DNA from: a virus
Lineage: Duplodnaviria > Caudoviricetes
Direction: 5' to 3' (one strand)
IMG/VR virus record: IMGVR_UViG_3300037424_000925
Coordinates: 1-62,443 of that record
DNA length: 62,443 bases
Shown here: in pieces, positions 4,729 to 46,722 of the stretch
How positions within the stretch are numbered: the stretch's first letter is position 1
How the letters are laid out: every line of letters begins with the position of its first letter
Program-made: the position numbers and the translations under genes
The notes under the pieces: model-generated
Databases searched by the model: none
Told to the model about the DNA's origin: nothing
What the model saw: the letters and a program-made list of their open reading frames with translations, nothing else

Positions 4729-5652
4729 CTACGCCGCCTTCCGGACCACTCGCTTCGTAGTCCCATCGCTCGACAACCCGGAGATATCCCCGATGTTGTC
4801 AGCCATGCTCTTGAGGCCCGCCGCGAACTGCTGTGAAAAGTCCCAGTTCCCACGGATATCCTTGGCTTCCACGTTTTCCAGCTCAGCTTTCAACTTCTCA
4901 ATCTCCGCCAACACATCCTGCAGGTCGAATATCTGGGCAATGTTCAGGTAATCATCGACCACCCTTTTGGGTTTCTTCAACGTCCCTTCTGTGATCTTCT
5001 GCCCCTGCTCGATCTTCTCGGATATTTCTTTGATGGCCTCCATCATGGCAGCCCGCGCCTGATCCATGATTTGCTCGGAATACTCCTCATAAGTTTCCGA
5101 TAATTGTTGCTGGAACCTGCGTTTCGCCTCTATCAGGTCCACCGGGTCAGCCTCATTGATTTCGGCGCCACGGATTTCGCAAACGTGCCATTTCACCTTG
5201 AACCTGTTCCGGATTTGCTGATCGGTTGGCCATTTGGCATCTGCCAGGATCGGATATTTCTCGATCATTTCCGTTTGAATCGCCGGCAGGTTGTTGATGA
5301 GGTCCTCGACGATTACAGCCTGATTGCTATCGATTTTCTCAAGACCGGTCTGTGCCTGCATAAAGTTCGAGTTCGGGACCAGCCAGGCCCCTCTAATGAA
5401 AAACCTTTTTCCAACGGTTGACATTAAAGATGTAACCTGTGAGCTGGGTTTCAGCATGTTAATCCTCACATCATCGGGGATGACATTCTTTCTACCCAGT
5501 TCGATGATGTCCAAGATATCGTCCGGATCCTTTCCCAGGTCAGACGCTTTCAGCTTGTCCTTGCCTGACCATGACGATACTGACGTGATCCAGATCGTAC
5601 AGTTTTGGTAAAGCTGCTGCTCTACCGTGGTTGTGTGCGTGTTCTCACTCAT
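4729..5652 (-). CDS. DUF3150-like protein
   Basis: WSGKDKL..SDLG, LGRK.VIP, RFFIRGAWLVP, RFKVKW motifs; context with AAA ATPase. Confidence 0.65.
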   Translation of the reverse strand: MSENTHTTTVEQQLYQNCTIWITSVSSWSGKDKLKASDLGKDPDDILDIIELGRKNVIPDDVRINMLKPSSQVTSLMSTVGKRFFIRGAWLVPNSNFMQAQTGLEKIDSNQAVIVEDLINNLPAIQTEMIEKYPILADAKWPTDQQIRNRFKVKWHVCEIRGAEINEADPVDLIEAKRRFQQQLSETYEEYSEQIMDQARAAMMEAIKEISEKIEQGQKITEGTLKKPKRVVDDYLNIAQIFDLQDVLAEIEKLKAELENVEAKDIRGNWDFSQQFAAGLKSMADNIGDISGLSSDGTTKRVVRKAA

Positions 5653-5739
5653 GTTTTTCTCCTCCTCCTATTTTGAATTTCCCGACGGTAATTCGCCAGT
5701 AGAAAGATCAACCACTTAGTTGACCCTTCGATTGAAGAG

Positions 5740-6153
5740 TTACCAATCACCCCCTCCAAAATCATCATTGACATACATCACGAGCTTTTTCGCCCCGGCT
5801 ATTGCAGAAGGAGCGTCCTCCCAGGCATAGTTCTTTGACTCGGCCCAGGCTATGTCCCCTTCCTGCAAATAAAACTGCTTGAAAGCCTCGCCATGCGCTC
5901 CCAACACTCCGGCCAGCCCACCACTATCCCAGAAGTCCGCTTGCACAGTGTAGCCGTTCTCAGTTCGTACAATGCCCAATTCGTAACGACACCCGGGAAT
6001 GTGAATAGCGTAATCGCAGACGCCCTTATCGTTTTTGTACCAGACGAAAGTTTTTTGGTCTAAGAACTCCCATCCTCTCCTCTGACAAAGGGCCTTGATA
6101 GTCTCAATGTCGAACTCAAGCCCTTCGGTTGAAATTGTGCTTATGTGTGACAT
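5740..6153 (-). CDS. DUF1257 (Ycf35-like) protein
   Basis: MSHISTIST...IKALC, YELGIV, ADFWD motifs. Confidence 0.7.
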   Translation of the reverse strand: MSHISTISTEGLEFDIETIKALCQRRGWEFLDQKTFVWYKNDKGVCDYAIHIPGCRYELGIVRTENGYTVQADFWDSGGLAGVLGAHGEAFKQFYLQEGDIAWAESKNYAWEDAPSAIAGAKKLVMYVNDDFGGGDW

Positions 6154-6166
6154 TTTCACTCCTCCT

Positions 6167-6379
6167 TCATCTCACCCATCGTGTTTGATTGCTTTCGTAA
6201 ACCGTGGGTTCGTCAGCGCAAACCGATATCATCTCTCCACAACTTGGGCATTTGATATCAACGCCGTCCACCAAGTCTAAGTAGGTCGCATCTATGCCCA
6301 AATGAAAACCACAGGAGCATTCAACGACTTCCAGCGAAAATTTCTCAGTTTCCACATCACCCACACAGTTTACTGACAT
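6167..6379 (-). CDS. Small Zn-ribbon protein
   Basis: CSCG...CPSCG; GAGGTG RBS before ATG 6379. Confidence 0.6.
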   Translation of the reverse strand: MSVNCVGDVETEKFSLEVVECSCGFHLGIDATYLDLVDGVDIKCPSCGEMISVCADEPTVYESNQTRWVR

Positions 6380-6560
6380 CACAAAGCACCTCCCCCTCGA
6401 AATATGACGGCTTATAATCCATCGTCTTGACTTGTCCGTGCCTTTCTTCGATTTCCCGCGTCGCTTCCTTACAACTGCCTCCCTCGTACCCGAAGGCCTC
6501 GACCCGGGTGCTTCCGTCCGGTAAATATTCAATCTCGATTCTTTTCATTTTGCTCTGCAC
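6357..6560 (-). CDS. DUF2997 family protein
   Basis: RIEIEYLPDGSTRVEAFGYEGGSCKEATREIE motif. Confidence 0.75.
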   Translation of the reverse strand: MQSKMKRIEIEYLPDGSTRVEAFGYEGGSCKEATREIEERHGQVKTMDYKPSYFEGEVLCDVSKLCG

Positions 6561-7023
6561 CCTCCTTCCATTTCTCAGAACTCAAATTTATCATACACTT
6601 CTTGCAGCTCGACTGCCGACCATCCGATGCTCCCTCTTTTTTGTGGTAGTCAGCCAGGGCCACATCATCCCCACACGTGCAGCATACTTTTGAAAGTGTG
6701 CCCACCCTAATTCGCGTGTAGTGCATATCACACAGGCCACTTGAGGTCACTGCCCTGCGGCAATTTAACACCGAACACACCTTGAACGGCATATCCAACC
6801 ATAACCCGGTTATTTCTCGGCCTTGCTCGCACTGCAAGCAATTAACATCCATCGACTCTACTGTGTACAAAGATTTTTGTTTGCGAATGGCTTTTTTCAG
6901 CCTTGCTTTGCATCTCGATTTCAGCATGATGCAGTTGCAACGGTCACAAAGGAAGAAATCTTCCGGGCTAAGCCCCGGATAAGTAGCAACGATCTCTTGT
7001 ACTCTTAAGTTCACTGCCTCCAC
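6529..7023 (-). CDS. Multi-Cys (Zn-binding) hypothetical protein
   Basis: CSVLNC..GLCDMHY and KVCCTC..DG..SSCKKC modules of the kind seen in phage endonuclease accessory domains. Confidence 0.55.
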   Translation of the reverse strand: MEAVNLRVQEIVATYPGLSPEDFFLCDRCNCIMLKSRCKARLKKAIRKQKSLYTVESMDVNCLQCEQGREITGLWLDMPFKVCSVLNCRRAVTSSGLCDMHYTRIRVGTLSKVCCTCGDDVALADYHKKEGASDGRQSSCKKCMINLSSEKWKEGAEQNEKNRD

Positions 7024-13242: not shown

Positions 13243-14139
13243 CTACACGGCCACGGCCTCTTTGGGGGCGTTGATTTCCTTCTTCGCTTCAAAGGCAGCC
13301 AATTGCTCCAGGGTTTTCTCGGCAATCCGCTTCATGCTCTGGAAAGTCAGTTTCAATTTTCCCACATCCCGTTTCCGGGCGTTGATAACATTCGGATCAC
13401 CAACCCAGTCTTTCTCGTAACTGGCAATCATCTTCTCCAGTTTCTCACTCGCTTTTCTCGCCTTACTCAGCCCGCCATTTTCCCCAGCCTCTTTTTTGGC
13501 CTGTGCGAAAATATCACGCTGATTTTGTTTGTCCAGGTACGCCTGAATCGCCGCCAGCATTTGACTGGCTTTATTCTTGTCCTTCAGGCAGCTGTTGAAA
13601 ACGTGCATTTGTTGTTGGGCGCTCTCGAAGGAGGTCGCCAATTTTCTCGCCACGTCCTTTGATATTTTCCCGTCATCCACAAACTTATGGAGTTCAGGCG
13701 CCAGTCCGCACAATTCCAGGTCCGACTTGATCGTAGCGACACCAACCCCGTGAATTTTCGCGACACGATTGATAGACAGCCCATGCTCATCAACCGACCG
13801 CTGATAACTTCTCGCCCGATTCATGATGCTCAAATCTTCCCGGTTCGCATTCGCCATAAGCTGTTTTTCCCACACGTCCCGCTTGCTGATACCGTCATAC
13901 ACGAAGCACGGAATTTCCTGCAAGTTCGCCAGCATGGCAGCCTTGGTGCGCCGGTGGCCGTCGATCACCTGATACTCACCGTCAGGAACATTTTCCGGGG
14001 ACCAGACTGTTATCGCCTGATCGTCCATGAAACCGGCAGCTTTCATGCTGTCAGCCAGTTCCTCAATCCCCGTATAAATTTCTCGGGGTTGTTCTGGGTC
14101 CAGGTGGATCTTCGTCACTTCAATTTTTCTCGTTTCCAT
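13243..14139 (-). CDS. parB: ParB/RepB/Spo0J family protein (ParB CTPase domain + HTH)
   Basis: PEQPRE, IEELADSM, VIDGHRR, ANANREDLS followed by HTH. Confidence 0.85.
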   Translation of the reverse strand: METRKIEVTKIHLDPEQPREIYTGIEELADSMKAAGFMDDQAITVWSPENVPDGEYQVIDGHRRTKAAMLANLQEIPCFVYDGISKRDVWEKQLMANANREDLSIMNRARSYQRSVDEHGLSINRVAKIHGVGVATIKSDLELCGLAPELHKFVDDGKISKDVARKLATSFESAQQQMHVFNSCLKDKNKASQMLAAIQAYLDKQNQRDIFAQAKKEAGENGGLSKARKASEKLEKMIASYEKDWVGDPNVINARKRDVGKLKLTFQSMKRIAEKTLEQLAAFEAKKEINAPKEAVAV

Positions 14140-15965: not shown

Positions 15966-16397
15966 TGAACGCCATTCGGTATATGAATGTTATTCAGATT
16001 ATGAACGGTATTTAGATAATGAATCGCATTCATATAATGAACGCTACTCACTTTGTGAACGCTATTCATCTCTTGAACGTGGTTCATAATCCGAACGTCA
16101 TTCAGTTAATGAACCTTACTTAGTTAGTGAACGCCATTCGCTTTGTGAACGTGGTTCACTTGCTGAACACCATTCGGTTACTGAATACCATTCGATTTAC
16201 GAACTCCATTCAGTTGCTGAACGCCATCCATCTACTGAACGTCATTCAGTCTCCGAATACCGTTCACTTGTCGAATAGTATTCAATGTCTGAATGCCCAT
16301 CAGTTATTGACCAGCTTTCAAATGTCGAATGCCTCTCGATTACTGAAAGTAAGTCACTTGTCGAATGGTATTCGGTTTACGAATACTGTTCACTTTT
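15966..16397. repeat. Tandem array of 24 x 18-bp units, consensus YGAAY-NNN-RTTCR-N5
   Basis: Exact 18-bp phase held for all 24 units; each has a 13-bp imperfect palindrome. Confidence 0.95.
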
Positions 16398-16861: not shown

Positions 16862-17836
16862 ATGAGAACAAGCACATTGAAAAAAGATGGAATAGAAAAT
16901 GGAAAATGGGAAGGGAGAAGGGAAGTATCCGACCTTCTAAAAGAAGATAAACTTTTACGTGAATACCAAAGGATAATTGACACCGATAATGAATTTGAAC
17001 CACTTGAGTCGGCCATGGACAAAGAAGATGTACTCCAAACGAGAATCTTATATCTTCTGGAAAACAAAGAAAAGATGGATGTTTACAGGAAAGAAGATCC
17101 AAAGAGATGGACTAACAGCCTAAATTTTTACGTCAGAAAAAGAAGGATAAACACTTTCCAGAGTCGTGAAAAATTTATCAGCCTGTCAGATAACGACACC
17201 TCAGAAAATACTCTGGTATCCATTGACCATGATGCAGATCTTCAAAACTGGATTCTTTCCCAAAAAGATGCAGAGGGAAAGGAAATTTTTACGCCCAGGC
17301 AGAAAGAGATTCTTTCCTTGCGCTTTACAGGGGAAAAGCAAACCGATATCGCAAAACTTCTTGATACCGATCAAGGGAACCTTGCGCGCACTTTCAAAAC
17401 GATAGATAGCAAGCTGGCAAAACTTCCCATTAAAGAAATGGTATCTTCCACCTGGTACCAGGGAAAAGGGAATGATCTTCCTATGAGTAGGGTATGGGCA
17501 GCAAAATGTCAAGATACGAACAGACCACATATTCCATGCCCTTCTCTTCCCATCATTCCCTCTATTCCTTCTCTGCCAGGTATCGTATGGAACATGGGAA
17601 GTCTACGCTCTGGATGCTATACGTCTCACGTCAAGGCTCCAGTTCTGGATATCATGGGAAGAATAGGGAAGAGTAACTCTTTCGATGCAACAAAGAATCT
17701 CAAAGATATACAGGATAGAAGGGATGCAGAACACTTCCACTTCTATCAGAATGTCATTGACTGTTCCAGAGGAAATGTTGACCACTCTTTCAATCCATTT
17801 AGTGAAGAGTCTCAAAGAAGGAAGTGGAAGAAGTAA
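16862..17836 (+). CDS. Sigma-factor region 4/LuxR-like HTH protein with long C-terminal extension
   Basis: FTPRQKEILSLRFTGEKQTDIAKLLDTDQGNLARTFKTIDSKL. Confidence 0.65.
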   Translation: MRTSTLKKDGIENGKWEGRREVSDLLKEDKLLREYQRIIDTDNEFEPLESAMDKEDVLQTRILYLLENKEKMDVYRKEDPKRWTNSLNFYVRKRRINTFQSREKFISLSDNDTSENTLVSIDHDADLQNWILSQKDAEGKEIFTPRQKEILSLRFTGEKQTDIAKLLDTDQGNLARTFKTIDSKLAKLPIKEMVSSTWYQGKGNDLPMSRVWAAKCQDTNRPHIPCPSLPIIPSIPSLPGIVWNMGSLRSGCYTSHVKAPVLDIMGRIGKSNSFDATKNLKDIQDRRDAEHFHFYQNVIDCSRGNVDHSFNPFSEESQRRKWKK

Positions 17837-17865
17837 CTAATCCTCTTTACATCCCATCCACACAC

Positions 17866-17898
17866 AGGCCATAGCTTCCACAGTATGGCCTTTCCTTT
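17866..17898 (+). terminator. Intrinsic terminator
   Basis: AGGCCATA-gcttccacag-TATGGCCT-TTCCTTT. Confidence 0.65.
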
Positions 17899-17900
17899 GG

Positions 17901-18295
17901 TTATCTTGTCTTGTCTTGTCTTGTGGTCTGTCTGCTGTCTTATGTGTCTTGTGTGTGTCTGCTGTCTTGTCTTGTGGCTTGCCTACTGTCTTGCCTACTG
18001 TCTGCTGTCTGCTGTCTGCTGTAGTTCTTAATAAAGCGAATGATGACTACCAGGGATTAGTGTACTATTGTAATATTGTAATATTGTATTGTATAGTCCT
18101 CTATACTAATTGATGACAGCCCATAATATGGGAGGCTATGCCCATGCAAGCGCCTGTATACTGTATATTGTATACTGTATACTGTATACCGTATACCGTA
18201 TACCATGCCCTTAACACCTGTTAACTTAACACCTGTTAACCTTGCATTTATGCAATGGTTAAAGGTGGACTAAGTGGACTTAGTCCAATGGACTA
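17901..18295. repeat. Cluster of simple repeats and palindromes
   Basis: (TTGTC)n/(CTGTCTG)n 17901-18022; (TATTGTAA)n ~18066; 7 x YYGTATA 18154-18202; 2 x CTTAACACCTGTTAA; palindrome TGGACTAAG..CTTAGTCCA. Confidence 0.85.
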
Positions 18296-18593
18296 ACCTA
18301 TTAATAATCATTAAACCATCAATCCCATAATCATAAGTACCTGATATGACTACACTATTCAGCCATCAATCCTTTAGGCTATGTTAAGAGCCTCTAAAAC
18401 AAGGGGTACCCCTCCATTTATTTGAGTAAGACCGGGCATACAGCTGCGGGCCGGGTATCGCCCGTGATCCTAAACGGAATTCTCAAAACTAAAGTCCGGC
18501 CCCTTTTCTTTCCGATAATTCTCAAAACTTTATTTTTTTTTCTTCATTTTTTGACCTCCCACTTTTTTCCTTTCGCCCTCGCACGAATTTTAC

Positions 18594-18622
18594 TTGACAC
18601 ATTTTGGCTGTGTGGTCATAAT
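18594..18622 (+). promoter_or_regulatory. Sigma70-like promoter of HTH-HTH-RAMP-array operon
   Basis: TTGACA-N17-CATAAT. Confidence 0.7.
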
Positions 18623-18674
18623 GTGCGCTGTGCTTGTGGGGCTCGTGCAAAAAAAACCAAAAAGGAGAAATGGA

Positions 18675-19043
18675 ATGAAGGGATTGAGTGAATTGCGAAA
18701 GGTTTTATTAATTAAAGGGGTTACGCAGCGTGAATTGGCTAAATTATCGGGGCTTAATGTAGCCGTAATAAGCCAGATTGCGACTGGTAGAGTGATCCCT
18801 ACTGCAGATGAGCGAGCACGGATTTCAGAGATTTTAGAAGAAAGTGAATCGGAATTATTTGGATTTGCGTTGCAAATGTGTAATTGTCCATATTGTGGGC
18901 ACGCGATATCTCACTCGGGATTTCAGGGGGATGAGATAGCCAACGGGGTGTGCCTGGTGTGTTCTTCCTGCGGGGGTGTTTTTCGGATTTATCCTTATAT
19001 GGGTGATGTGTCTAAGGTGGTGATCACGAAGGATGGATTTTAG
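18675..19043 (+). CDS. XRE/Cro HTH regulator with C-terminal Zn ribbon
   Basis: GVTQRELAKLSGLNVAVISQIATGR; CPYC...CSSC. Confidence 0.8.
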   Translation: MKGLSELRKVLLIKGVTQRELAKLSGLNVAVISQIATGRVIPTADERARISEILEESESELFGFALQMCNCPYCGHAISHSGFQGDEIANGVCLVCSSCGGVFRIYPYMGDVSKVVITKDGF

Positions 19044-19045
19044 AT

Positions 19046-19354
19046 ATGGGCGTGCATGCGAGGGTGCCTGAAGGGGCGATATTAGAGGTTTTGAGGGGTG
19101 AGAAGACGCAGAGTGTTGTGGCGAGGGAATGGGGGGTTAGTCGGCAGGCGGTGAGTGAGCGTGTGTGGAAGGTTGAGGGGATGCCTGAGCGTGCTGAGAG
19201 GGTGAAGCGAGTTCCTGTGGAGCTTCCTATGGAGCGTGCTGAGTGCCCTGGGCTGTCTGCTGAGGATACTGCCATCATCAACAGTGATTGTGACTGTGTT
19301 GTAGGCGACGAGGAGTGTGGGGATGATTTAAGTGGTTTTTGTTTGGAGCTGTAA
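19046..19354 (+). CDS. HTH protein with Cys-rich tail
   Basis: TQSVVAREWGVSRQAVSERV. Confidence 0.65.
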   Translation: MGVHARVPEGAILEVLRGEKTQSVVAREWGVSRQAVSERVWKVEGMPERAERVKRVPVELPMERAECPGLSAEDTAIINSDCDCVVGDEECGDDLSGFCLEL

Positions 19355-19398
19355 GGAGTCAATCGATAACAATCGAAGTTTTAAAAAGGGGGAGAATA

Positions 19399-20010
19399 AT
19401 GGGTGAGGAATTTGGGAAAAGAGAAGTGACGATCCGGTTTACTGAAAAGATGTTGGGTACGGTGCCCAAGGATAAGGAGATTTACAAGACCTATATCGCC
19501 GGGAAAAAGGCTGACTTGGAAGAGGAGTGGTTGAAAGAGGAAGTGGAGACCGTGGAGCAGGCGGAAGAGAAGGGCTGGACCGGGTTCCATAAAGATGAAA
19601 AAGGGCTGTTTTTGTTTGACTATCTGATAAAGGGTTTTCTCAAGAGCGGTATGGAAGTGAGCATGGAAATGGGCGCGGTGGATAAGGTGGTGGCATATAA
19701 AAAGTGGATTGATTTATCCGTGTTTGTGTGGCCGAGGAGAATTTACCTGGGGATAATGGAGCCTGACGGGGTACTTGAAAGGCCTCTTAGGACCATGACT
19801 CCGAAAGGGCCGAGGGTGGCATTGAGCCGAAGCGATTATGTGAATGAGGGGAGGGAATTGACATTCGAGGTGGAGATTTTGAAAAACAAGAAAGGTCTGG
19901 ACTGGGATGCCATAGAGCAGGCGTTTGACTATGGGCGATATGTGGGTTTGGGGCAGTGGCGGGGGAGTGGTGGGTACGGGCGGTTTGAGCTGGTGGGGGA
20001 TGGGGAGTGA
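19399..20010 (+). CDS. Stand-alone Cas7/RAMP-like protein (203 aa)
   Basis: N-terminal strand + LGT, IKGFLK helix (cf. LKG.LR of Cas7/Csm3), SDYVNEG.ELTFEVEI, C-terminal G-loop GLGQWRGSGGYGRF; GGGAG RBS. Confidence 0.75.
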   Translation: MGEEFGKREVTIRFTEKMLGTVPKDKEIYKTYIAGKKADLEEEWLKEEVETVEQAEEKGWTGFHKDEKGLFLFDYLIKGFLKSGMEVSMEMGAVDKVVAYKKWIDLSVFVWPRRIYLGIMEPDGVLERPLRTMTPKGPRVALSRSDYVNEGRELTFEVEILKNKKGLDWDAIEQAFDYGRYVGLGQWRGSGGYGRFELVGDGE

Positions 20011-20011
20011 T

Positions 20012-20507
20012 GGTAAAGTAACGTGGAGTAAAGCACGGTTACGGTAATGTAAAGTAATACATGGTATGGTGGTGTTGAGTAACGGCAGTGTGTGGTTGGG
20101 TGGGGTGTCGGCATGGTTAGGATCGGTTCGGTGGTGGTAATGTTTGGTAGGGCAGTGTGTCGCGATGGAACTGTGGGGTTAAGTGGAGTGCGAGTTTGGT
20201 AAAGTGAAGTGGAGTACCGGTAAAGCGAGGCGTGGTTAGGCGCGGTTTGGGAATGGTAGAGTATTGTGATGTGTTGGTGATGTAATGTGATGTGCGGTCC
20301 GGTCTGGTTTTGGTAATGTAACGTAAGGCTGTGTAATGGCAAAGTGACGTTGGGTATAGTTACGTAATGGTTTGGTCTGGTAAAGTTCTGATGGGTAGAG
20401 TGCGGTAAAGGAATAGTAATGTTACGTAATGTGACGTATTGGTGATGTCGGGTGTGACAAGGTGATGGCATGGTTGTGAACAGCTCGGTGGGGTAACGTG
20501 GGGGCGC
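20012..20507 (+). repeat. Pentamer array: 96 NGY-NN pentamers in 16 units of 5n+1 nt; putative guide-RNA array
   Basis: Parsed by hand; starts 1 nt after RAMP stop; G at pentamer position 2 in 93/96, pyrimidine at position 3 in 88/96; every unit ends in one extra pyrimidine. Confidence 0.85.
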
Positions 20508-20532
20508 GGCGAAGGGAGGATGGTTGGATAAA

Positions 20533-20718
20533 ATGATTGAAACCAAGGTGAAACTCAGGATAGCGTGTGAGGTTTGTGAGGGGACGGGGAGGATACCGTC
20601 GCAGAATAAGGGTGGGTTATACGACACCATTTACTGCCCTGACTGCCGTGGGGAAAAATCTTATGAGGTTTGGATATCTATTACGAAGTTTAAGGCGATG
20701 TTGGACAGGTTGGGTTGA
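20533..20718 (+). CDS. Small DnaJ-type Zn-finger protein
   Basis: CEVCEGTG...CPDCRG. Confidence 0.6.
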   Translation: MIETKVKLRIACEVCEGTGRIPSQNKGGLYDTIYCPDCRGEKSYEVWISITKFKAMLDRLG

Positions 20719-20728
20719 AGGGGTGTAA

Positions 20729-20980
20729 TTGATAGCGATTGGGACCGGCACCTACGATCACGATACCTCTCCCACTTATAATGGGACAACCTGTTCTAAT
20801 GGGGCTTCTTCTTTGGTTGTAGCCTATGTGAATGTTGTCTATTATCGGTGTAATGATACATTTGTTGATGATTTAAAACTCATAGACCCTTTTCCTGAAC
20901 CTGATTGGCCTGAGTTGAAACCGGTGGTAGTGAATCCTGTGAAGAGGATGGGGCCAAAGGTGAGTGGTAGGTTTAATTGA
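20729..20980 (+). CDS. Hypothetical protein
   Basis: ORF with RBS, in operon direction. Confidence 0.4.
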   Translation: MIAIGTGTYDHDTSPTYNGTTCSNGASSLVVAYVNVVYYRCNDTFVDDLKLIDPFPEPDWPELKPVVVNPVKRMGPKVSGRFN

Positions 20981-21060
20981 AAGATTTTAAGATGTAATAG
21001 AAGAGGGATTGGTTTGAGGCTAAGAAAGGTGAGATGAGGAAAATAATCGGGGGAGGTTGA

Positions 21061-21249
21061 TTGATTATGGAAATATCGTTCAAGATTTTGGGTCGGAATA
21101 TTAGGATAGGGCGTGATTTCAAGAAGTATAAGGGGCTTGATGTGGTTTTTGGGTCTATGGTGTTTGCGACGATGTTTGTTTTAAGTATCCCGTTGATGAT
21201 TGCCGGATTCCGGTGGCATAGGACGGTGGGGAAGATTAATCATGGCTAA
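21061..21249 (+). CDS. Small membrane protein
   Basis: GGAGG RBS; one TM helix. Confidence 0.5.
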   Translation: MIMEISFKILGRNIRIGRDFKKYKGLDVVFGSMVFATMFVLSIPLMIAGFRWHRTVGKINHG

Positions 21250-21859
21250 AGGTAAAAAAAAGGGATCGGAGGTGACACAGTCTCCTGTTCCTGAGCAGAT
21301 AGGGACGAGCGTGGGGCACGTTGAGGGGAAGCAGTTACGATTCTTGGCGCACGTGGCGAGATGCGGGGGGGAACGTTGCCGGATTTACGATATGTGCCCG
21401 TACAGTGGGGAAACAGACCGGTCGGAGAGGTGCGCGTTGCTGCATCGGTACTTGAAATCGATGTATCAGGATTGGGTGGACCCGAAGAACGGGTTGGGGG
21501 ACGTGCTGACGCAGATACAGTTGGACCGGTTGGGGAGTCATGTGATGCCGCTGTATCATCATTTGGCGATGTTTGCGTTGGAGATTGCTGACTTGCCTAA
21601 GACGACGTACACGAATAAACAGGGAAATTGGATGGCGTACCCGCAGTTTGGGGAGATGAGGGCAACGATGCAGCAGATCCGGGCTGAGGTAAAGGATTTG
21701 AAGTTGGATGCGCTGTGGGAGAAGAAGTTTGGGGGTGGGGTGGATGGTAGGAGCTTGCCTGCGGGCGGGGGCGCGATGAATTTGGACGATATTTATCAGC
21801 ATGGTCGGCGGGGTGCGTATGAGGAGTTGGTTGACCGGGCGCATAAGAGGGAGGCATAA
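21242..21859 (+). CDS. Possible terminase small subunit with N-terminal Cys cluster
   Basis: YTNKQGNWMAYPQF...MQQIRAEVKDLKL resembles the C-terminal half of P27-type TerS; CxxxxC..CPY..C. Confidence 0.45.
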   Translation: MAKGKKKGSEVTQSPVPEQIGTSVGHVEGKQLRFLAHVARCGGERCRIYDMCPYSGETDRSERCALLHRYLKSMYQDWVDPKNGLGDVLTQIQLDRLGSHVMPLYHHLAMFALEIADLPKTTYTNKQGNWMAYPQFGEMRATMQQIRAEVKDLKLDALWEKKFGGGVDGRSLPAGGGAMNLDDIYQHGRRGAYEELVDRAHKREA

Positions 21860-26866: not shown

Positions 26867-27104
26867 GCGTTATCAGGATTCGGATGGGATCCCGCACGAT
26901 ATAATGGAGATGGTTCGCTTAGAGACAGGATGGGCAGCGAGTCGAATTCAGGAAGGCGAAAAAGCGATTGAGGCGCTGAAGGAATGCCGGAGGTTTAATA
27001 AGTTACAGAATGACCTTGAGGCGTATCTCTTCTACATGGCAGAATGGGCGCTCAACAACAAGATGAAACCCGACCCGAAAAATTACGGAGTGCGAAAGGA
27101 TTAA
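26853..27104 (+). CDS. Hypothetical protein
   Basis: GGAGGA RBS. Confidence 0.55.
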   Translation: MDLDKRYQDSDGIPHDIMEMVRLETGWAASRIQEGEKAIEALKECRRFNKLQNDLEAYLFYMAEWALNNKMKPDPKNYGVRKD

Positions 27105-27106
27105 TA

Positions 27107-30034
27107 ATGGCAAGACCGCAGAAAATGCCGCCATCTGATTTTCGCACGCACGACCCGGCCCCATCAGCGGGAATCTTGGATGGTGGTGAGGGGATGATTC
27201 GGTGGTGCGAGGAAAAGGTGAACGTCTCGATTACGCCGTTCGGTTCAGCGGTGTCGATGTGGGTTCCGCTGGGAAATTTGCCGACAGAGAAGCATCCTGT
27301 CACTGGGCGGTCGTACCGAGATATGTGGGAAGGGCAGAAGGATGTTCTCCGCGAGGCGCTGGTGATGGAGAATGGGGAGTATCTACATCGGTTAATTATT
27401 CTATGTTGGCCTCGCGGAGAGGGAAAGTGTCAAGGAAAGGGATCTCAAATCTTAATGTTCGATGGATCAACCAAAAAGGTCGAAGATGTTGTGGTTGGGG
27501 ATCTTCTTATGGGCAACGACAACACTCCTCGAAAGGTCCTGTCTTTGGCAAGCGGGAAAGAAGAGATGTATGAAGTTGTGCCTATGCGAGGGGAACCAAT
27601 GGTTGTGACTGCTGACCATGTTTTGTCCCTGAAGCGCCGGAGGTCGCGTCTCCATAAGAGAGGGAAGCTCTTTGAAGACCCTAAAGTTGGAGAAATTATT
27701 GACATATCGTTGCGGGATTACCAGAAGCAGAATCAATGGTTTAAGGATCTTCACCTCCTTTATCGCGTTCCCATCGAATGGGAAGAGCAGACGGTAGACA
27801 TTGACCCCTACTTGCTGGGGCTATGGCTTGGGGACGGAAGCTCCAACATCTCTGCAATTACAAACATGGATAAAGAAGTCGTTGATTACCTGTATGCCTT
27901 TGCGGATAAAGCCGGGATGAGGATTGCAGCTTATAGGAGAAAACAAGGGGGTAAAGCGTCTCTATATCGAATTGTTACCGACAATAGGGGCAAGAAGAAC
28001 GGAAATAATCTCCTGAATGCACTAAGGGAATACGACCTTATCAAGAATAAGCATATTCCACAGGCGTATAAGATCAACTCCCGGGATATTAGGCTGAAGC
28101 TCCTTGCCGGGCTTGTTGATAGTGACGGATACATCAACAGGAATTCAATCCAGATTACGATAAAGGTAAAGCAACTCGCAGAAGACATTGTCTTTCTGGC
28201 GCAATCATTGGGATTCCATGCTGCGATGAAGTTATGCACGAAGGGGATTAAAAGTATCGGTTTTCAGGGAGAATATTACAGGATTGGAATCTCTGGAGAT
28301 TGTTCAGTGGTTCCCACTGCCATTGAAAGGAAAAAGGTCAGAGGCAGAAGCCCGTGGAAGAACATTCTTGTTACGGGCATCAGAGAGGTCCGGTCTGTTG
28401 GCGAGCGGGAATACTACGGGTTCACGCTGGACGGCAACGGCAGGTATGTGACTGCTGATTTTACCGTTACCCATAACTCTCTCATAGTGTGTATGCTGGA
28501 GCTTTACCGCTTTTTCAACTTCCCCAGGCAGAAGATAGTTTGTGGTGCCAATTCAAAAGATCAGTCCCAGTTTGTCCATTATGATATTATGAAGAGTATC
28601 GTCCTTCATAGCCCGAGGCTTTTGGCTGAGATAGGCAGAAAGGGGGTGCAGCAGAAGGGGTTGTACTATCTGGACAAGAACGGTTCCCCGCAGTCGGAGA
28701 TACGAACTATTTCATCTTTTTCGGGAATTGTGTCGAATATCAACTCTTATACCTTTTCCGAAATGTTTCAGCAGCGCAAAGCGGATTTCTTTGTTCAGCT
28801 GGACGGATCGATTAGAAATATTCCGAACGCCATGGGATGTATTGATTCCACGGTTTCGGACAAACAGCATCAGCTTTACCGTTTGTACGATGCTTCATTG
28901 AAAGAGCAGGATCCGACCCTCTACTTTTCGTATCGGTACAGTAAGGAAGGAAATCCGGACGATTACTGGAACCCGAATATGACACAGGCACAGCTGGATT
29001 CGTACCGGATTAAGTTCCCATTCGGGGATTTTGAGCGGTACTTTCTGAATCTGTGGGAAGCTGGCGGGGACAAGGTTTTTTCTCTGGAAATGATTGAGGC
29101 GATGCACTTGCTTGGCGTGGATAAGACTCCGAACGTTCACCGGATGATGATGGACATGATTAAGACAAAAAACAAGTTTTATCAGCAGAAAGAAGAATTG
29201 GCTGATTCCGGAATTGAGGCGACTGCCCGGTTCGAGACGTTGGAGATCGAGAAACGGTTGTGGCCTGTGGAAGATGTTTACCAGTTGAGGAATAAGCAGA
29301 ACAGGCCTCAACTGGCTACTATGATGGACTTGGAGACATTGAGTGACATTTACGATACCCATTGGTCAATCATTGGGGCCCTTGACCGTGGCGACCCAAT
29401 GAAGCAGAAGACTTCGGCCAGGTCGATCGTGGTGGGGTTGGCCAAAGGTTTGATTGGCAGCAGGAGTAATCCGTTTGCGGCCGCCGATGGAGAAGCGCCG
29501 GCGTACTTGTATTTTGTCATTCACCTGCACAATGTTGAGGATCATTCGTTAGAAGGAATAAAAAATCAATTTCAGATGCTTCACGACGAGTTCGATGGTT
29601 TGGATATGATCGGCGGCGAGCGTTGGGGGGCGTGGGACTTGGCGCCGTGGTGTGAGGAACGGGATATCGCTTTGGATTTATGGGTGGCAACCTATGACCG
29701 GCAGAAGGCGATGTTCTCTGAGTTCTTTACGGCGGTGAAGTTTGGCAGGTTCAAGATTCCGCCTGTGGCTGTTGCCGGGTACAGGATGGACGATATTTTT
29801 GATGAAGAGGCCGAAGTGTTCGATCACGACCCTCCGGCGTCAGGCAAGAAGGCGGGATTCTTTGGGAGCCCGGAGAAGAATTTGAAGGACGGTGTGCAGG
29901 ATGATGTGATGTTTACCATTGGTGGGGCGATTTACGCCGGGAGGACTTTGTCGGTGACGAACTTTCGGGACAGGAAGGGCACGAAGAATTTCAGTTTGTT
30001 CTTTCCTTCGAAGGGGTTGTTGGGGGATTATTAA
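27107..30034 (+). CDS. terL: Terminase large subunit containing an intein
   Basis: Walker A PRGEGK|S, GANSKDQS, C-terminal nuclease DDVMF; precedes portal. Confidence 0.85.
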   Translation: MARPQKMPPSDFRTHDPAPSAGILDGGEGMIRWCEEKVNVSITPFGSAVSMWVPLGNLPTEKHPVTGRSYRDMWEGQKDVLREALVMENGEYLHRLIILCWPRGEGKCQGKGSQILMFDGSTKKVEDVVVGDLLMGNDNTPRKVLSLASGKEEMYEVVPMRGEPMVVTADHVLSLKRRRSRLHKRGKLFEDPKVGEIIDISLRDYQKQNQWFKDLHLLYRVPIEWEEQTVDIDPYLLGLWLGDGSSNISAITNMDKEVVDYLYAFADKAGMRIAAYRRKQGGKASLYRIVTDNRGKKNGNNLLNALREYDLIKNKHIPQAYKINSRDIRLKLLAGLVDSDGYINRNSIQITIKVKQLAEDIVFLAQSLGFHAAMKLCTKGIKSIGFQGEYYRIGISGDCSVVPTAIERKKVRGRSPWKNILVTGIREVRSVGEREYYGFTLDGNGRYVTADFTVTHNSLIVCMLELYRFFNFPRQKIVCGANSKDQSQFVHYDIMKSIVLHSPRLLAEIGRKGVQQKGLYYLDKNGSPQSEIRTISSFSGIVSNINSYTFSEMFQQRKADFFVQLDGSIRNIPNAMGCIDSTVSDKQHQLYRLYDASLKEQDPTLYFSYRYSKEGNPDDYWNPNMTQAQLDSYRIKFPFGDFERYFLNLWEAGGDKVFSLEMIEAMHLLGVDKTPNVHRMMMDMIKTKNKFYQQKEELADSGIEATARFETLEIEKRLWPVEDVYQLRNKQNRPQLATMMDLETLSDIYDTHWSIIGALDRGDPMKQKTSARSIVVGLAKGLIGSRSNPFAAADGEAPAYLYFVIHLHNVEDHSLEGIKNQFQMLHDEFDGLDMIGGERWGAWDLAPWCEERDIALDLWVATYDRQKAMFSEFFTAVKFGRFKIPPVAVAGYRMDDIFDEEAEVFDHDPPASGKKAGFFGSPEKNLKDGVQDDVMFTIGGAIYAGRTLSVTNFRDRKGTKNFSLFFPSKGLLGDY
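27428..28477 (+). mobile_element. Intein (350 aa) with LAGLIDADG homing endonuclease
   Basis: N-term CQGKGSQILMFDGS, block B VTADH, LLGLWLGDG and LLAGLVDSDG, C-term VTHN|S. Confidence 0.95.
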
Positions 30035-38770: not shown

Positions 38771-40804
38771 ATGAAAAAACGAGTGCTGTTTGTCGGTGAA
38801 AACCCATTAGGAACAACCGGAAATTCTAATATGCTTTCAGCGATGCTGTCCGACCTGGACTTGGGCAAGTATCAGCCGGGGTGCTTTGTCGTAAATGAAG
38901 TGAACCCGTCCGCTGTGTTATTTGATCCTTTGCCTTTTACATTGGTGAACGGCACAAATCCTTCCGATTATTGGGGTAATCAGCGGCTCATATCTCTTCT
39001 TCAGGAAACTCAGTTCGATTTTCTTTGCATGGTGGGCATAGATTTTTGGCGATACATCCCTGCATGGGACATGATAAAAAAACTTCGGGACGCCAAGAAG
39101 TTCAAGTGGATAGGGATATTCCCATACGATCTCTGGAAAATTAATACCAGCTGGATCAATCGATTGACCGACCTCGACTTCCCTTGCGTTTATTCACAGT
39201 TTGGTTACGACGCTCTCAAGCCTCATGTTCCCCACATCCAATATTATCGCCCACGGTTAAATGGGTGGGAACAGTTCAAGCCCCTCTCTTCCGAGGAAAG
39301 GTTGGCCGCCAAGAAAGAAGTGTTTCCGAACATCCCTATTGGCAAAACTATTTTCGGATTTGTCGGCCAGAATCAGATTCGGAAATCCCCTGAAAGATTA
39401 ATGAAGGCTTTCATGGAAGCGAAGAGAGAGAACCCAGATATCGTTCTGTATCTCCATACTAACATGGAAGGCGTTTTCAACTTAAAACAGATTGCCAAGG
39501 ACAATGGTGCCCAAAACGGGGACCTCGTATCTAAGCAGCAGGGGATATCTTATGACAGAAGGAAGATGCCTGATATTTATAATGCGATGGATTGCTTGAT
39601 AAATTGCAGTATGCAGGAAGGCCTTTCCTGGACGCCCTTGGAGGCTATGGCCTGCGGAACCCCGGTGATAGCTTCAGTAACGACCGCTCAGACCGAGCTT
39701 GTAGATAAGGTTGGGTATCTGGTGCCATGTGATGAGCTTTCTTTCGTCCCCATGACCGGGGAAGGAGAGAATGTATCAGCAGAATCAAGGGCCTGCAAGG
39801 TGGAAGATATCCGGAATGCCATTCTCACAGTAGCCAAGGATGAAATACTCAGGCAATCTATGGGGGAAAAAGGGATTGAACGAGCCAGGGAATGGATGGC
39901 TGGCACGAGCAATATCAACGATCTTTTGGAAACAGCTGGCAAGAAACAAAAGCCAGCGAGCAAAATTGCTGCTGTCTTGTTCGCCCAACATTCCGCTGCC
40001 GGGGATGTTTTGATGACAACCCAGTGCCTCAAGGGGATCAAAGAGCGACACCCTGACCTGCCTCTGGTGTATATGACTCAACGGGCCTTTGCCGGGATAC
40101 TTGAAAACAATCAGTACATCAACGAAATTATCGAGTGGGACGAAAGACTTTTGAGAAAGTTCGCTATTACCTACAACCCCCACGGAGAGAAGATTCTTCC
40201 TGGTGGGTGGAATAATTTGGATGTGACGCTTCACAGTATGTATCCCTACTTCACGAATGTCGATACTGACGAGATATTTATTGATACCGTGAATCCGGAA
40301 GTATTGTGGAAAGAGAAAATTGAGTTCCCCATGGAATACATCGTCGTCCACACAACCGGGGGTAGCAAGGAATATCGAACCTATCCCCACATGGAACAGG
40401 TGATCAAGGGACTAAGCATCCCGACTGTCCAAGTAGGCGGAGCCACAGACTTGAGATGCAATGCCAGTCTGGATCTGTGCGGAAAGACGACCTGGAGGGA
40501 GTCAGCTTACATTATGAAGCACGCAAAAGCGGCCATTGTCGTGGACAGCTTTATGTCTCATCTGGCCGGTGCGGTCGGTACAAACGCTGTGGTCTTATAC
40601 GGCCCGGCGCCAGCGAGAGTTGTGCAACCTCGAATGCAACACGGAGCGAAACTGATCAACCTTCAACCGGATATGCTGAAGGTTTGTGCTATCCTTTCCC
40701 ATTGCTGGAGTAATCCGCCGGGGGGAAAGGTCAAGTGCCAATCGCCCTGCATCGGAACAATAAACCCATTCGCCGTGTCTCAGGCGCTGGAGGGATTGCT
40801 GTGA
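38771..40804 (+). CDS. GT4-GT9 glycosyltransferase fusion
   Basis: NQIRK, EGLSWTPLEAMACGTPVI (GT4); AGDVLMTT, DLCGKTT, DSFMSHLAGA..VVLYGP (GT9). Confidence 0.9.
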   Translation: MKKRVLFVGENPLGTTGNSNMLSAMLSDLDLGKYQPGCFVVNEVNPSAVLFDPLPFTLVNGTNPSDYWGNQRLISLLQETQFDFLCMVGIDFWRYIPAWDMIKKLRDAKKFKWIGIFPYDLWKINTSWINRLTDLDFPCVYSQFGYDALKPHVPHIQYYRPRLNGWEQFKPLSSEERLAAKKEVFPNIPIGKTIFGFVGQNQIRKSPERLMKAFMEAKRENPDIVLYLHTNMEGVFNLKQIAKDNGAQNGDLVSKQQGISYDRRKMPDIYNAMDCLINCSMQEGLSWTPLEAMACGTPVIASVTTAQTELVDKVGYLVPCDELSFVPMTGEGENVSAESRACKVEDIRNAILTVAKDEILRQSMGEKGIERAREWMAGTSNINDLLETAGKKQKPASKIAAVLFAQHSAAGDVLMTTQCLKGIKERHPDLPLVYMTQRAFAGILENNQYINEIIEWDERLLRKFAITYNPHGEKILPGGWNNLDVTLHSMYPYFTNVDTDEIFIDTVNPEVLWKEKIEFPMEYIVVHTTGGSKEYRTYPHMEQVIKGLSIPTVQVGGATDLRCNASLDLCGKTTWRESAYIMKHAKAAIVVDSFMSHLAGAVGTNAVVLYGPAPARVVQPRMQHGAKLINLQPDMLKVCAILSHCWSNPPGGKVKCQSPCIGTINPFAVSQALEGLL

Positions 40805-41553
40805 TAATAGGATGTAAATGTCTCAACGAACAGTATTCAGTAAAGCCGGTAATCGGAGACATCCACGACGAACCGTGGGTGGAGAAGATCATCGTAATTG
40901 ACGGATGCTCATCTGATGACACAGTCCATGAGCTGAAACAGTTTCCGAAGGTGCAAGTCTTTCAGCATAAGTGGGAAAAATGGTTCCACGCTCAGGAAGT
41001 CATTCAGTCGAATATCCTGCTTCAGTATATCCCGGTCGGGGAAACCTTCTTCATCCTGGATTTTGACGAGCAATGTTCTCCCGAGCTGAAAGCCCTACTT
41101 GCCGACATTGACGAAAAGGGGATGCCGGACGATGTGGACTGCGTGCATGTTTCCAGGAAATCCTACGAGCTGATGCGGTTCCCCGGATCGCCCTTTGCGA
41201 TACCGGACACCTCAAATGGATTTTGGGTGAAGTCTCACCAGATAGGCCAGTATCCGGATTACCAACTCAGGATTATCCGGCGCCAACTCGGGATGCAATG
41301 GGTAAATTCACCGCACCATGTCATGTTTGGGATGCAGGAAGGCTTATTTACAAACAAAAACATCCAGGCGGATCTAATCCATTATCATGGGAAAGAAGAC
41401 GCCAGGGACCGAGAAGGGATTGAGCGCCAGTGGGTTAGACACCAGGCGACCAGAGCCAGGTTGGGACTCGAAGCAGACATCTTCGAAGGCGATGTGAAGC
41501 CCGAACTGGCAAAATACGCAAACCCCGAATATTGGGAGGAGAAAGGATTATGA
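40801..41553 (+). CDS. GT2 glycosyltransferase
   Basis: NE, IIVIDGCSSDDT, LDFDE, YPDYQLR. Confidence 0.85.
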   Translation: MIIGCKCLNEQYSVKPVIGDIHDEPWVEKIIVIDGCSSDDTVHELKQFPKVQVFQHKWEKWFHAQEVIQSNILLQYIPVGETFFILDFDEQCSPELKALLADIDEKGMPDDVDCVHVSRKSYELMRFPGSPFAIPDTSNGFWVKSHQIGQYPDYQLRIIRRQLGMQWVNSPHHVMFGMQEGLFTNKNIQADLIHYHGKEDARDREGIERQWVRHQATRARLGLEADIFEGDVKPELAKYANPEYWEEKGL

Positions 41554-42257
41554 CATTCATAGACGAACATTGGACCAGTATCCAACCAGCGGTTCCAGAG
41601 GGCAACTCAGGTGCAGAGTGTGTTGCGAAAAGTTTTCTGTACCCGTGGAACCATGATAACGCCAATATGGATATGATTTGCAGGGCCATCAAAATACTCA
41701 ATCCGAAAGTGGTGATCGAGCTCGGCACTTTTGAAGGGTTCGGGACGGAGAAGATGGCGAGAGCCATGTCTGGAGGTAAACTCTACACGTTTGATGCAGG
41801 GGAGGCCCCGGTAGATTGTCTTGGGGAGACCTATGGTGTCACGAAAGAATTCAAATACAAAAAATGGATGGTGGATTGGAAAAACATCACGTTCCCAGGG
41901 TGGGATTCTTTCGGGACAGTAATCGACAAAAGAACTGAGAGGGTCAATGCTGATTATGGGGGTGTGAAAGTCGCTTTCATCGAAGGCATGACGTTCGACA
42001 CGCTTCCGAAACAAATGCCGAAAATAGGGAAGTGGGACTTTTTGTTCCAGGACACGCTGCATTATCTTGACTTCATCGTTAAGGAATGGAAGTTGGTGAA
42101 AAAATACAGCAAAACGGGGAGCGTGATCGTTTTCGATGATGTTTCCCTTAAGACAGGTGGCCAAGACACGATTGACTATTTCGAAACAAACGAAAAGACG
42201 TGGCAATGGCGCCACACACCGATTGGCCATGGGCAGCTTTGGGGGGTTAAAAAATAA
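41550..42257 (+). CDS. Class I SAM methyltransferase (Methyltransf_24-like)
   Basis: VIELGTFEGFGT, DFLFQDTLH, GSVIVFDD. Confidence 0.8.
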   Translation: MTFIDEHWTSIQPAVPEGNSGAECVAKSFLYPWNHDNANMDMICRAIKILNPKVVIELGTFEGFGTEKMARAMSGGKLYTFDAGEAPVDCLGETYGVTKEFKYKKWMVDWKNITFPGWDSFGTVIDKRTERVNADYGGVKVAFIEGMTFDTLPKQMPKIGKWDFLFQDTLHYLDFIVKEWKLVKKYSKTGSVIVFDDVSLKTGGQDTIDYFETNEKTWQWRHTPIGHGQLWGVKK

Positions 42258-43849: not shown

Positions 43850-44820
43850 ATATCGAAGGCAAAATAATTCTAATCACAGGCGGCAAAGGATTTTTGGGAT
43901 CCTATATGGCCGAAAGGTTTTTATCCCTTGGGGCTAAATCGATTGTGATTCCTACCCGAGACATCAAAAGTGTCTCCACGTTAGAGATTTTGGGTATCGC
44001 CAACTCCCCCAGGGTAAGCATAATCAAAGGCGATATCAGGGATTATGAGTTTCTACGGATGCTGTTCTGCGAATACGAACCAGATGTTGTTGCCCATTTG
44101 GCGGCATTATCGGAGGTCAGGAAGTGCCAGGACGACGCCAAGTTGGCGTTGGACATTAATCTTCATGGGACCATATCGCTATTGGAAATAATCAGATTAT
44201 ATGGCCATTCGGGTGCGGTCATCGTAGCAAGTTCAGACAAGGCCTATGGGAAGGGTGAGTTGCCGTATAAGGAAGGCCAGCCCCTGCACGGGGGAGGCGT
44301 GTATGAGGTTTCCAAGTCCTGCATGGACATGATCGCTCGGGCGTATGCTTCAAATTACGGGTTGCCTGTGGTGGTTACGAGATGTTGTAATCTGTACGGA
44401 GGGTATGACCTGAACTTTTCAAGGATTATCCCGAACACGATTCGACAATTATTGAGAGGGCAGCGCCCCCTGATTTGGACGGGAAGCGAATTGGCAAGGC
44501 GAGAGTTTTTATACATTGACGATGCGGTGTCGGCGTACCAGGCATTAATTGAGAGCATTGAGATAGCCAAAGGGGAGGCCTACAACGTGGGCGGTGGGGA
44601 TATTCTTTCGATTGGTTATTTGGTGGATTCAATTATATCGGCCTTTGGGACGGACATTAAGCCGGAATATCGGACGAAGGATTTCCCCGAAATATCCGAC
44701 CAGTATTTGGATTCAAATAAGATAACAGAAGAAATCGGTTGGGAGGCAACCACCGATTTTGCAACGGGTCTATCCAAAACAATCGAAGATTATAAATCAA
44801 TCAAATGGAGGTTGATATGA
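43846..44820 (+). CDS. NDP-sugar 4,6-dehydratase/epimerase (extended SDR)
   Basis: TGGKGFLG, HLAA, SSDKAYG, YEVSK, RCCNLYG. Confidence 0.9.
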   Translation: MNIEGKIILITGGKGFLGSYMAERFLSLGAKSIVIPTRDIKSVSTLEILGIANSPRVSIIKGDIRDYEFLRMLFCEYEPDVVAHLAALSEVRKCQDDAKLALDINLHGTISLLEIIRLYGHSGAVIVASSDKAYGKGELPYKEGQPLHGGGVYEVSKSCMDMIARAYASNYGLPVVVTRCCNLYGGYDLNFSRIIPNTIRQLLRGQRPLIWTGSELARREFLYIDDAVSAYQALIESIEIAKGEAYNVGGGDILSIGYLVDSIISAFGTDIKPEYRTKDFPEISDQYLDSNKITEEIGWEATTDFATGLSKTIEDYKSIKWRLI

Positions 44821-46719: not shown

Positions 46720-46722
46720 AAT

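Follow-up and report, generated by a model that had tools for sequence, protein, structure and literature searches.

Can a phage without cas genes carry an RNA-guided system built from a single RAMP protein and an array of guides written as pentamers, and is such a system of a known kind? The question is raised by IMG/VR virus record IMGVR_UViG_3300037424_000925, a Caudoviricetes sequence of 62,443 nt (77% complete according to CheckV) that was analysed over its whole length and is referred to here as the window. An earlier note on this DNA had drawn attention to a solo RAMP-like open reading frame (ORF) directly followed by a pentamer tract and had proposed a non-CRISPR guide system. We find that the locus is very probably a phage-borne VIPR system, comprising a Vipr protein (19399-20010) and a guide-RNA array (20012-20506) and proposed to act by the mechanism set out below. 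It is a genuine VIPR locus of a kind with two fixed bases and short blocks. This kind has already been published in preprints of 2026, and the novelty of the system implied by the earlier note is thus lost. The two components are:

19399..20010, + strand: vipr; ATG at 19399, stop codon at 20008-20010; 203 aa; predicted single-RRM RAMP (Cas7-like)
20012..20506, + strand: predicted vrRNA array; 96 xGY-NN units in 16 blocks; starts one base after the vipr stop codon

According to the preprint texts, VIPR consists of a minimal RAMP (Vipr), encoded mostly in phages and prophages, beside vrRNAs of GGY/NN pentamers, and seven types are distinguished (10.64898/2026.04.26.720920). One protomer binds each repeat in a helical filament in which GGY is buried and NN exposed, double-stranded DNA is read with every third base skipped (usually at the codon wobble position), and rival phages and satellites are silenced transcriptionally as a result (10.64898/2026.04.26.720920; 10.64898/2026.04.26.720927). 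The earlier note had mentioned such a report; it exists and describes the gripped GGY, the displayed NN and the single skipped base (10.64898/2026.04.26.720920).

The Vipr protein

The vipr gene is preceded by a GGGGGAG ribosome-binding site, and the RAMP hallmarks named in the earlier note were readily located in its product (LIKGFLKS at residues 76-83 and the glycine-rich loop, or G-loop, GLGQWRGSGGYGRF at residues 183-196). None of Pfam, PHROGs and PADLOC assigned a family to the protein and a phmmer search of the PDB gave nothing significant. An AlphaFold2 model made from a 34-sequence alignment (pLDDT 88.2, pTM 0.82) contains a beta-alpha-beta core, a long helix 1 (residues 74-90) and a beta-hairpin at about residues 124-148 that corresponds to the thumb; the glycine loop at residues 187-190 was modelled at low confidence. 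Foldseek retrieved 96 PDB chains at E<=1e-3 with this model, and the best structural matches among those listed were Cas7/Csm3/gRAMP-type CRISPR effector chains. According to the model, the fold is a RAMP of the Cas7 type, and the RRM core, glycine-rich loop and thumb found in the small RAMP Vipr are all present.

The fold is the only feature in common with the Cas7 and Csm3 proteins of CRISPR-Cas types III and VII, since the window has no cas operon, CRISPR repeats or second RRM. The step in the window covers 5 nt, of which two or three are hidden, whereas that of Cas7 is given as 6 nt with one base flipped in the preprint text (10.64898/2026.04.26.720920). As the earlier note had stated, there is no other cas gene or CRISPR array: none of the 66 window ORFs matched the Cas models of PADLOC-DB and Tandem Repeats Finder gave no CRISPR-like array in the window. 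The element is a phage without cas genes, with genes for a primase, an ERCC4 nuclease, a terminase-like protein, a portal/protease, a major head protein and a tape-measure protein, and it also encodes ParB, sigma-like and repressor-like genes.

Relatives of the window protein were numerous: of 702 candidates in a 90%-clustered collection, 552 reached E<=1e-3, and at 50% identity the family comprised 1,675 representatives, 1,060 of them below 1e-10. The best reference for comparison is VIPR type II of Escherichia phage SUSP1 and a Pseudomonas fulva prophage (10.64898/2026.04.26.720920; structures 10.64898/2026.04.26.720927, PDB 36pp), whose Vipr is likewise a small RAMP in which a single RRM is combined with a G-loop and thumb. 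In KT454805.2, SUSP1 vipr lies at 28474-29061 (minus strand) and vap1 at 28031-28471, and the intergenic regions on both flanks are pentamer-rich. Relatives of SUSP1 Vipr were gathered (529 at E<=1e-3 of 567 candidates), and an alignment of 34 diverse members of the window family was compared with one of 26 SUSP1-type proteins using hhalign. The profiles matched with a probability of 94.7% and an E of 5.8e-8 over 175 columns. This match spans nearly the full length and places the window protein in the Vipr superfamily, distant from type II.

The same profile alignment pairs the G-loop of SUSP1 (GVG-D177-W178-R179) with that of the window protein (GLG-Q186-W187-R188). In SUSP1 Vipr, W178 is described as stacking on G2, R179 as holding Y3, and D177 together with H17 as reading G1 (10.64898/2026.04.26.720927). 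Q186, the counterpart of D177, is nearly invariant across the window family, and H17 belongs to a stretch of five residues absent from it. The G1-reading residues of SUSP1 thus appear to be changed or missing in the window family, which fits a repeat with fixed G2 and Y3 and a free first base.

Periodicity of the array

Self-identity of the tract reached 0.47, 0.42 and 0.38 at lags of 5, 10 and 15 nt, compared with 0.23-0.30 at lags 1-4 and 6-9. Columns were flat in every fixed 5-nt frame (G in at most 44/99) because the phase slips, a one-base shift occurring every 21-46 nt. The tract therefore does not consist of 96 in-frame pentamers filling 496 bp, as the earlier note had described it (96 x 5 is 480). 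Dynamic programming for x-G-Y-N-N, with units of 3-7 nt permitted, parsed 20012-20506 into 96 units, of which 81 are pentamers and 15 hexamers. G occupies position 2 in 94/96 units and a pyrimidine position 3 in 89/96, so the counts in the earlier note (93/96 and 88/96) were essentially right; G is found at position 1 in 48/96. The parse score of the array was 221 as against 55+-9 in 20 shuffles, while 250 tiles of 497 nt from both strands of the window had a mean score of -10.9 (standard deviation 25), a best of 178 and a second best of 65. The tile scoring 178 is presumably the one overlapping the tract. The array RNA (40% G, 9% C) folded no better than its shuffles (-108.7 vs -114.6+-4.2 kcal/mol, z +1.40), and a search of 17500-21500 against Rfam at E<=1 gave no ribozyme and no known RNA.

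Association of gene and array

Homologues were tested for a downstream 5-nt autocorrelation, as the earlier note had suggested. A 5-nt periodic tract was present within about 1.3 kb of the gene in 45/46 IMG/VR loci with a Vipr homologue (31-82% identity), and in no locus was a tract found beyond this distance. The tract lies directly downstream in 34 loci, 250-1,100 nt downstream in 8 and upstream only in 3, with none in the remaining locus (L045; L numbers designate these loci). Five of the 46 loci duplicate others, so the non-redundant count is 40/41. The pentamer tract is a conserved partner of vipr across the family. When all ORFs from -2.5 to +3 kb around the gene were compared by blastp, only Vipr recurred (41/41 loci), and the next best window ORF was common to one locus. 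Nor was a vap1 homologue detected in the window (best tblastn E 8.1), an accessory vap gene being typical of VIPR though not universal. The window adds a clean and compact example of VIPR, with one gene, one array and no accessory gene in a polycistronic early region of a sediment phage. A scan of genome contigs returned only four loci, from metagenome-assembled genomes (MAGs) plus one weak hit, and no host was learned from it.

Two further arrangements were seen among these loci. L008 and L009 lie on one 150-kb IMG/VR contig, as two identical vipr-plus-array copies in opposite orientation about 27 kb apart. In L019, L023 and L041 a second 5-nt periodic tract is also present upstream of vipr, reaching up to 1.1 kb in L041.

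The strand opposite the array contains an open frame:

19929-20630, minus strand: probably spurious ORF, 233 aa; spans the array; one weak low-complexity match among 41 loci

Rather than encoding guides, the tract might function at the DNA level, for instance as an origin element or as a G-rich repeat that has a structural role or binds protein, or it might code for this ORF. Its richness in G and scarcity of C, and the presence of an open frame on one strand, would suit such a role. We nonetheless find the idea barely credible: no conserved reading frame could have a 5-nt period interrupted by +1 shifts, the ORF has just the one match noted above, and the tract is invariably accompanied by an RNA-binding RAMP with homology to a protein for which binding of such RNA has been shown. 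The minus-strand frame is open only because the array strand is C-poor and is likely a false gene call in automated annotation. Tracts of this sort generate long spurious ORFs on the opposite strand, which is of relevance for annotation.

Block grammar and turnover of the array

The 15 hexamers split the window tract into 16 blocks of 6, 8, 5, 5, 7, 4, 5, 7, 4, 7, 5, 6, 9, 5, 5 and 8 units:

Starts of blocks 1-8, + strand: 20012, 20043, 20084, 20110, 20136, 20172, 20193, 20219
Starts of blocks 9-16, + strand: 20255, 20276, 20312, 20338, 20369, 20415, 20441, 20467

Every block except the last closes with one extra base, which is a pyrimidine at 14/15 junctions. Fifteen blocks are preceded by an extra base and 12 of these open with GG, as does block 1. 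We parsed 24 further arrays, hand-picked from the 41 non-redundant loci for a clear tract directly downstream of the gene. Units of 6 nt outnumbered those of 4 nt in 24/25 arrays, with a tie in L020, and block lengths over the parsed arrays peaked at 5 units, followed by 6 and then 4. Junction statistics were pooled over 24 arrays (the window and 23 loci, L004 being left out). The first base was G in 81% of 372 post-hexamer units vs 26% of 980 internal units, and the fourth base was A in 65% vs 39%. In the window alone, the first base was G in 12/15 post-hexamer and 21/49 internal units (Fisher p = 0.017). The block grammar consists of an opener that is mostly GGY-A, xGY-NN units and one closing extra base, and recurs in 24 related arrays. 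This gives a quantitative grammar for a very large uncultured branch that differs from the only experimentally studied type. In our reading, the blocks are modular guides and the register determines where each one ends.

An array of the same block grammar but far greater length was observed in L043 (33% protein identity), where 325 units in about 65 blocks make up a 1.7-kb array at 4911-6600.

Comparison of related arrays indicates how they change. L001, the closest relative (82% protein identity), has an array of 100 units as compared with 96 in the window, and the two have no collinear sequence in common beyond periodic G and T. The content of arrays turns over rapidly. L003 and L004, with 89% gene identity at the nucleotide level, form one closer pair that reveals which positions of the unit are under constraint, the fractions changed being:

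x: 9/53
G2: 0/53
Y3: 15/52, all C/T swaps
N4: 4/52
N5: 8/53

N4 and N5 together had changed at 12/105 positions, and the pair also differs by one 26-nt indel (5x5+1), exactly one block length.

The tract could be what is left of an array that has decayed or become inactive, or the protein might function independently of it. Several off-pattern units in the window array (TACAT, GGATC, TGATG, GACAA, TGAAC) would accord with decay, as would the failure to find a target or RNA evidence. This explanation seems very improbable to us given that G2 is kept in 94/96 units with the block grammar intact, and that the vipr gene is intact with its family motifs retained in the window protein. The unrelated content of the L001 array, at a similar size to that of the window, is moreover the signature of turnover under selection.

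Comparison with described VIPR systems

The window and SUSP1 type II are alike in having proteins homologous at the profile level, in being phage-borne and devoid of cas genes or a CRISPR array, and in having gene-strand pentamers beside the gene with a fixed G and pyrimidine and a variable NN. They differ in how these pentamers are organized. SUSP1 has four separate vrRNAs, each with a leader, 11-14 uninterrupted pentamers and a conserved structured tail, and its tracts lack the block grammar, whereas in the window 16 blocks of 4-9 units abut one another, with one spacer base between them and no tail. The trait of type II, 9-16 uninterrupted repeats per vrRNA and a structured 3' tail, is absent from the window array. 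Further differences are the first base (G in 37/50 units of SUSP1 vs 48/96 in the window), the G-loop (QWR in the window vs DWR in SUSP1), the lack of a vap1 homologue in the window and the insignificant pairwise similarity of the proteins.

Closer counterparts may be sought among the non-canonical arrays. The first preprint names NNNGG, YNNNG and NNNNG repeats, 'staggered arrays with overlapping vrRNAs' and ribozyme-interspersed arrays (10.64898/2026.04.26.720920). When read from Y, the window unit xGY-NN equals the YNNNG repeat that appears among the 'alternative repeats' of this source (methods section 20 and the fig. S18 legend), and its main text reports no targeting test for these variants or for staggered arrays. 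The window's block layout probably corresponds to the 'YNNNG' repeats and 'staggered' arrays. The suggestion in the earlier note that a variable first base may mark a distinct subtype fits with the naming of YNNNG repeats and, by the profile alignment, with the replacement of D177 by Q186 and the absent H17 stretch. Further VIPR-like 5-mer motifs such as WGT/NN and TGH/NN have been described, and resemble the window array in their 5-nt period, a degenerate first or third fixed base and an adjoining Vipr-like fold; the available text on these clusters has motifs 'repeated 10 times' and mentions no block or extra-base grammar (10.64898/2026.10.21.760802). The words 'staggered', 'processing' and 'type I' are not mentioned in the VIPR preprint of October 2026 (10.64898/2026.10.15.759431).

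Guide code and search for targets

The NN dinucleotides of 1,408 internal units correlated with positions 1-2 of sense-strand codons in the window's long ORFs (r 0.83-0.84), as compared with r <=0.19 for the other five choices of frame and strand, and a residual correlation of r 0.74 was left after removal of single-base composition. This is what the published wobble-skip rule predicts. The triplets formed by NN and the next x include 63 stops where 72.6 are expected; there is no shortage of stops and x is therefore not a copy of the third codon base. Together with the missing G1-reading residues, this codon-position signature provides concrete hypotheses on guide delimitation and the skip rule in this branch.

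A different code is conceivable, in which only GY is gripped, N4, N5 and the next x all pair, and the target is read without gaps. The paucity of G at position 1 of internal units across the clade favours such a code, as does the loss of the H17 and D177 contacts to G1. In the L003/L004 pair, x changes at a rate of 0.17, near that of N5 (0.15) and below the free C/T swaps of Y3 (0.29), and three read bases per unit would raise a block of 5-6 units to 15-18 nt. We consider a three-base code quite unlikely all the same, as stop triplets ought to be missing if NN represents codon positions 1-2 and x the third, and they are not. Gapless targets are also a subset of the NNx patterns that were scanned, the single match to the window's 9-unit block agreed with x at 1/8 skip positions, and local scans with an NNN reading had no excess.

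These local scans covered 0.38 Mb (the window and related loci, with arrays masked). Counts equalled those of shuffled guides, both for the NNN reading with a skip of 0-3 and for the NN reading over 7-8 units with or without the extra junction base. Bins with matches from at least two guides of one array were no commoner than in shuffles, and within the window the best target matches did not exceed those of controls. In exact NNx scans of IMG/VR, no match was obtained for the L040 10-unit block, the L001 12-unit run or a two-block window pattern, the last two of which also had no match in metagenome scans. The collection scans accept exact matches only, and targets with mismatches are therefore not excluded.

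Two candidate targets from IMG/VR were rejected. The window's 9-unit block had a single match, judged to be chance (about two expected by a rough estimate from collection size), in which the flank was unrelated and x matched 1/8 skip bases. The L020 10-unit block matched once, in a repetitive protein of a giant-virus MAG, and this was also judged to be chance.

A VIPR system might also produce one or a few long vrRNAs from the array, the extra bases forming bulges in a continuous filament on one long in-frame target. Short blocks expose only 8-18 read bases, the NN of all blocks resembles codon positions 1-2 in a way that a frame-preserving junction would keep, and there is no tail, ribozyme or terminator between blocks, each of which argues for long vrRNAs. 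Set against this are block lengths that vary from 4 to 9 units with no fixed structural period, the restart of canonical GGY-A at each junction and the close pair in which an indel matches the length of one block exactly. In-frame two-block patterns also matched nothing in the metagenome, IMG/VR or the window, a weak point as only exact matches were accepted. We regard long vrRNAs as unlikely.

Proposed mechanism

In the reading that we prefer, of a VIPR system with guides as short as single blocks, the array would be transcribed with vipr from a promoter upstream in the early region. Following the work on SUSP1, Vipr protomers would load one per pentamer with G2 and Y3 buried and N4 and N5 exposed, the exposed dinucleotides would base-pair with double-stranded DNA belonging to a rival mobile element, with every third target base skipped, and the bound filament would block transcription. 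The anatomy of the window array suggests some departures from this scheme. The extra base would break the 5-nt register such that every block of 4-9 units would assemble as a separate short filament or guide (about 16 here), this register break would replace the structured 3' tails that delimit the vrRNAs of SUSP1, and the first base of the unit would not be read.

A bolder extension, possible but on balance rather doubtful, is that the whole branch (1,675 clusters at 50% identity) uses a guide grammar not worked out in the preprints, with boundaries purely in register. GGY-A would nucleate a filament and the extra base 4-9 units later would shift the following GY out of phase and terminate the filament, so that one untailed transcript self-partitions into many very short guides. 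Specificity might then come from several guides on one rival gene or from reading of the free first base.

Several observations weigh against the VIPR reading or parts of it. Single-sequence comparisons with SUSP1 Vipr were insignificant (hhalign 39%, tblastn E 1.3), and for this reason homology rests on the profile-profile result together with the fold. With the window family profile, hmmsearch against 36pp_D ('SUSP1 Vipr protein', PDB) gave no better than an E of 0.19, over the G-loop. No vap-like conserved partner was seen in the 41 loci. No promoter or terminator match brackets the array itself, and co-transcription with vipr is proposed because of the layout of the gene string, the upstream promoter match and the lack of a terminator-like site. 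Transcription, processing and binding of the tract are proposed from homology and anatomy. The three sequencing runs found for the locus are all DNA, and one may be that of the source sample. The 8-18 read bases exposed by blocks of 4-9 units offer little for specific recognition of DNA, which counts against one block being one guide, and in one close pair x changes no faster than N5 (9/53 vs 8/53), which counts against x being unread. Finally, no search yielded a target, and the skip rule is thus presumed for the branch of the window.

Genomic context

The vipr gene and array belong to a tight string of genes on the + strand, in the order HTH (helix-turn-helix) repressor-like ORF, HTH-like ORF, vipr, array and zinc-ribbon ORF. 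The features around vipr and the array are:

18594..18622, + strand: sigma-70-like promoter match; TTGACA, 17 nt, CATAAT; 11/12 consensus positions, best of 6 in 18400-21300
18675..19043, + strand: Cro/CI-type HTH protein; HTH_3 (Pfam) E 3.1e-7, above cutoff; PHROG 3 transcriptional repressor 3.7e-9
19046..19354, + strand: 102-aa ORF, weakly HTH-like; KORA 8.7e-4 and MarR_2 5e-3, both below Pfam cutoffs
20524..20718, + strand: zinc-ribbon ORF, 64 aa, CxxCxGxG/CxxC; behind a AGGGAGGA site; Anti-TRAP 1.1e-6, 29 bits, below the 32-bit cutoff

The promoter match at 18594-18622 is a candidate for driving the whole string, including vipr and the array, and no terminator-like site was found between vipr/array and the zinc-ribbon ORF. 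For the HTH protein, the translation makes an internal ATG near 18675, with an AAGGAG-like site, a likelier start than the listed TTG at 18594. The 102-aa ORF lies directly upstream of vipr, and none of the 41 loci has a homologue of it beside vipr. In 3/24 cases (the window, L007 and L039) the array is followed by a small CxxC ORF; the zinc-ribbon ORF is possibly an accessory gene, though not a conserved one.

Upstream of this string, 17840-18600 is a long non-coding stretch between the sigma-like and repressor-like genes, with dense short tandem and direct repeats (CTGTCTG x3.6, CTGTATA x7.1 and CTTAACACCTGTTAA x2.1) and a weak 5-nt rhythm. Two parts of this stretch were considered as further arrays and rejected for want of a clear xGY pattern, with xGY parse scores of 20 vs 15.2+-4.7 for 17880-18025 and 0 vs -10.7+-5.7 (about 2 standard deviations) for 18030-18205. 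An 18-nt tandem repeat occupies 15966-16250 (consensus TGAACGCCATTCAGTTAA, 15.8 copies, 67% matches), about 1.8 kb from the ParB gene (13243-14139, minus strand), and may represent iterons or a partition site; four ORFs near it had no Pfam match at E<=0.01.

Two observations concern more distant parts of the window. A 996-aa ORF at 27044-30034 has terminase-large/helicase-like matches and a homing-endonuclease-like match at residues 254-478, and may reflect insertion of a mobile element into a gene for packaging or replication. Between the phage head and tail modules, 38771-49458 holds a cluster of glycosyltransferase and Nol-like carbamoyltransferase genes.

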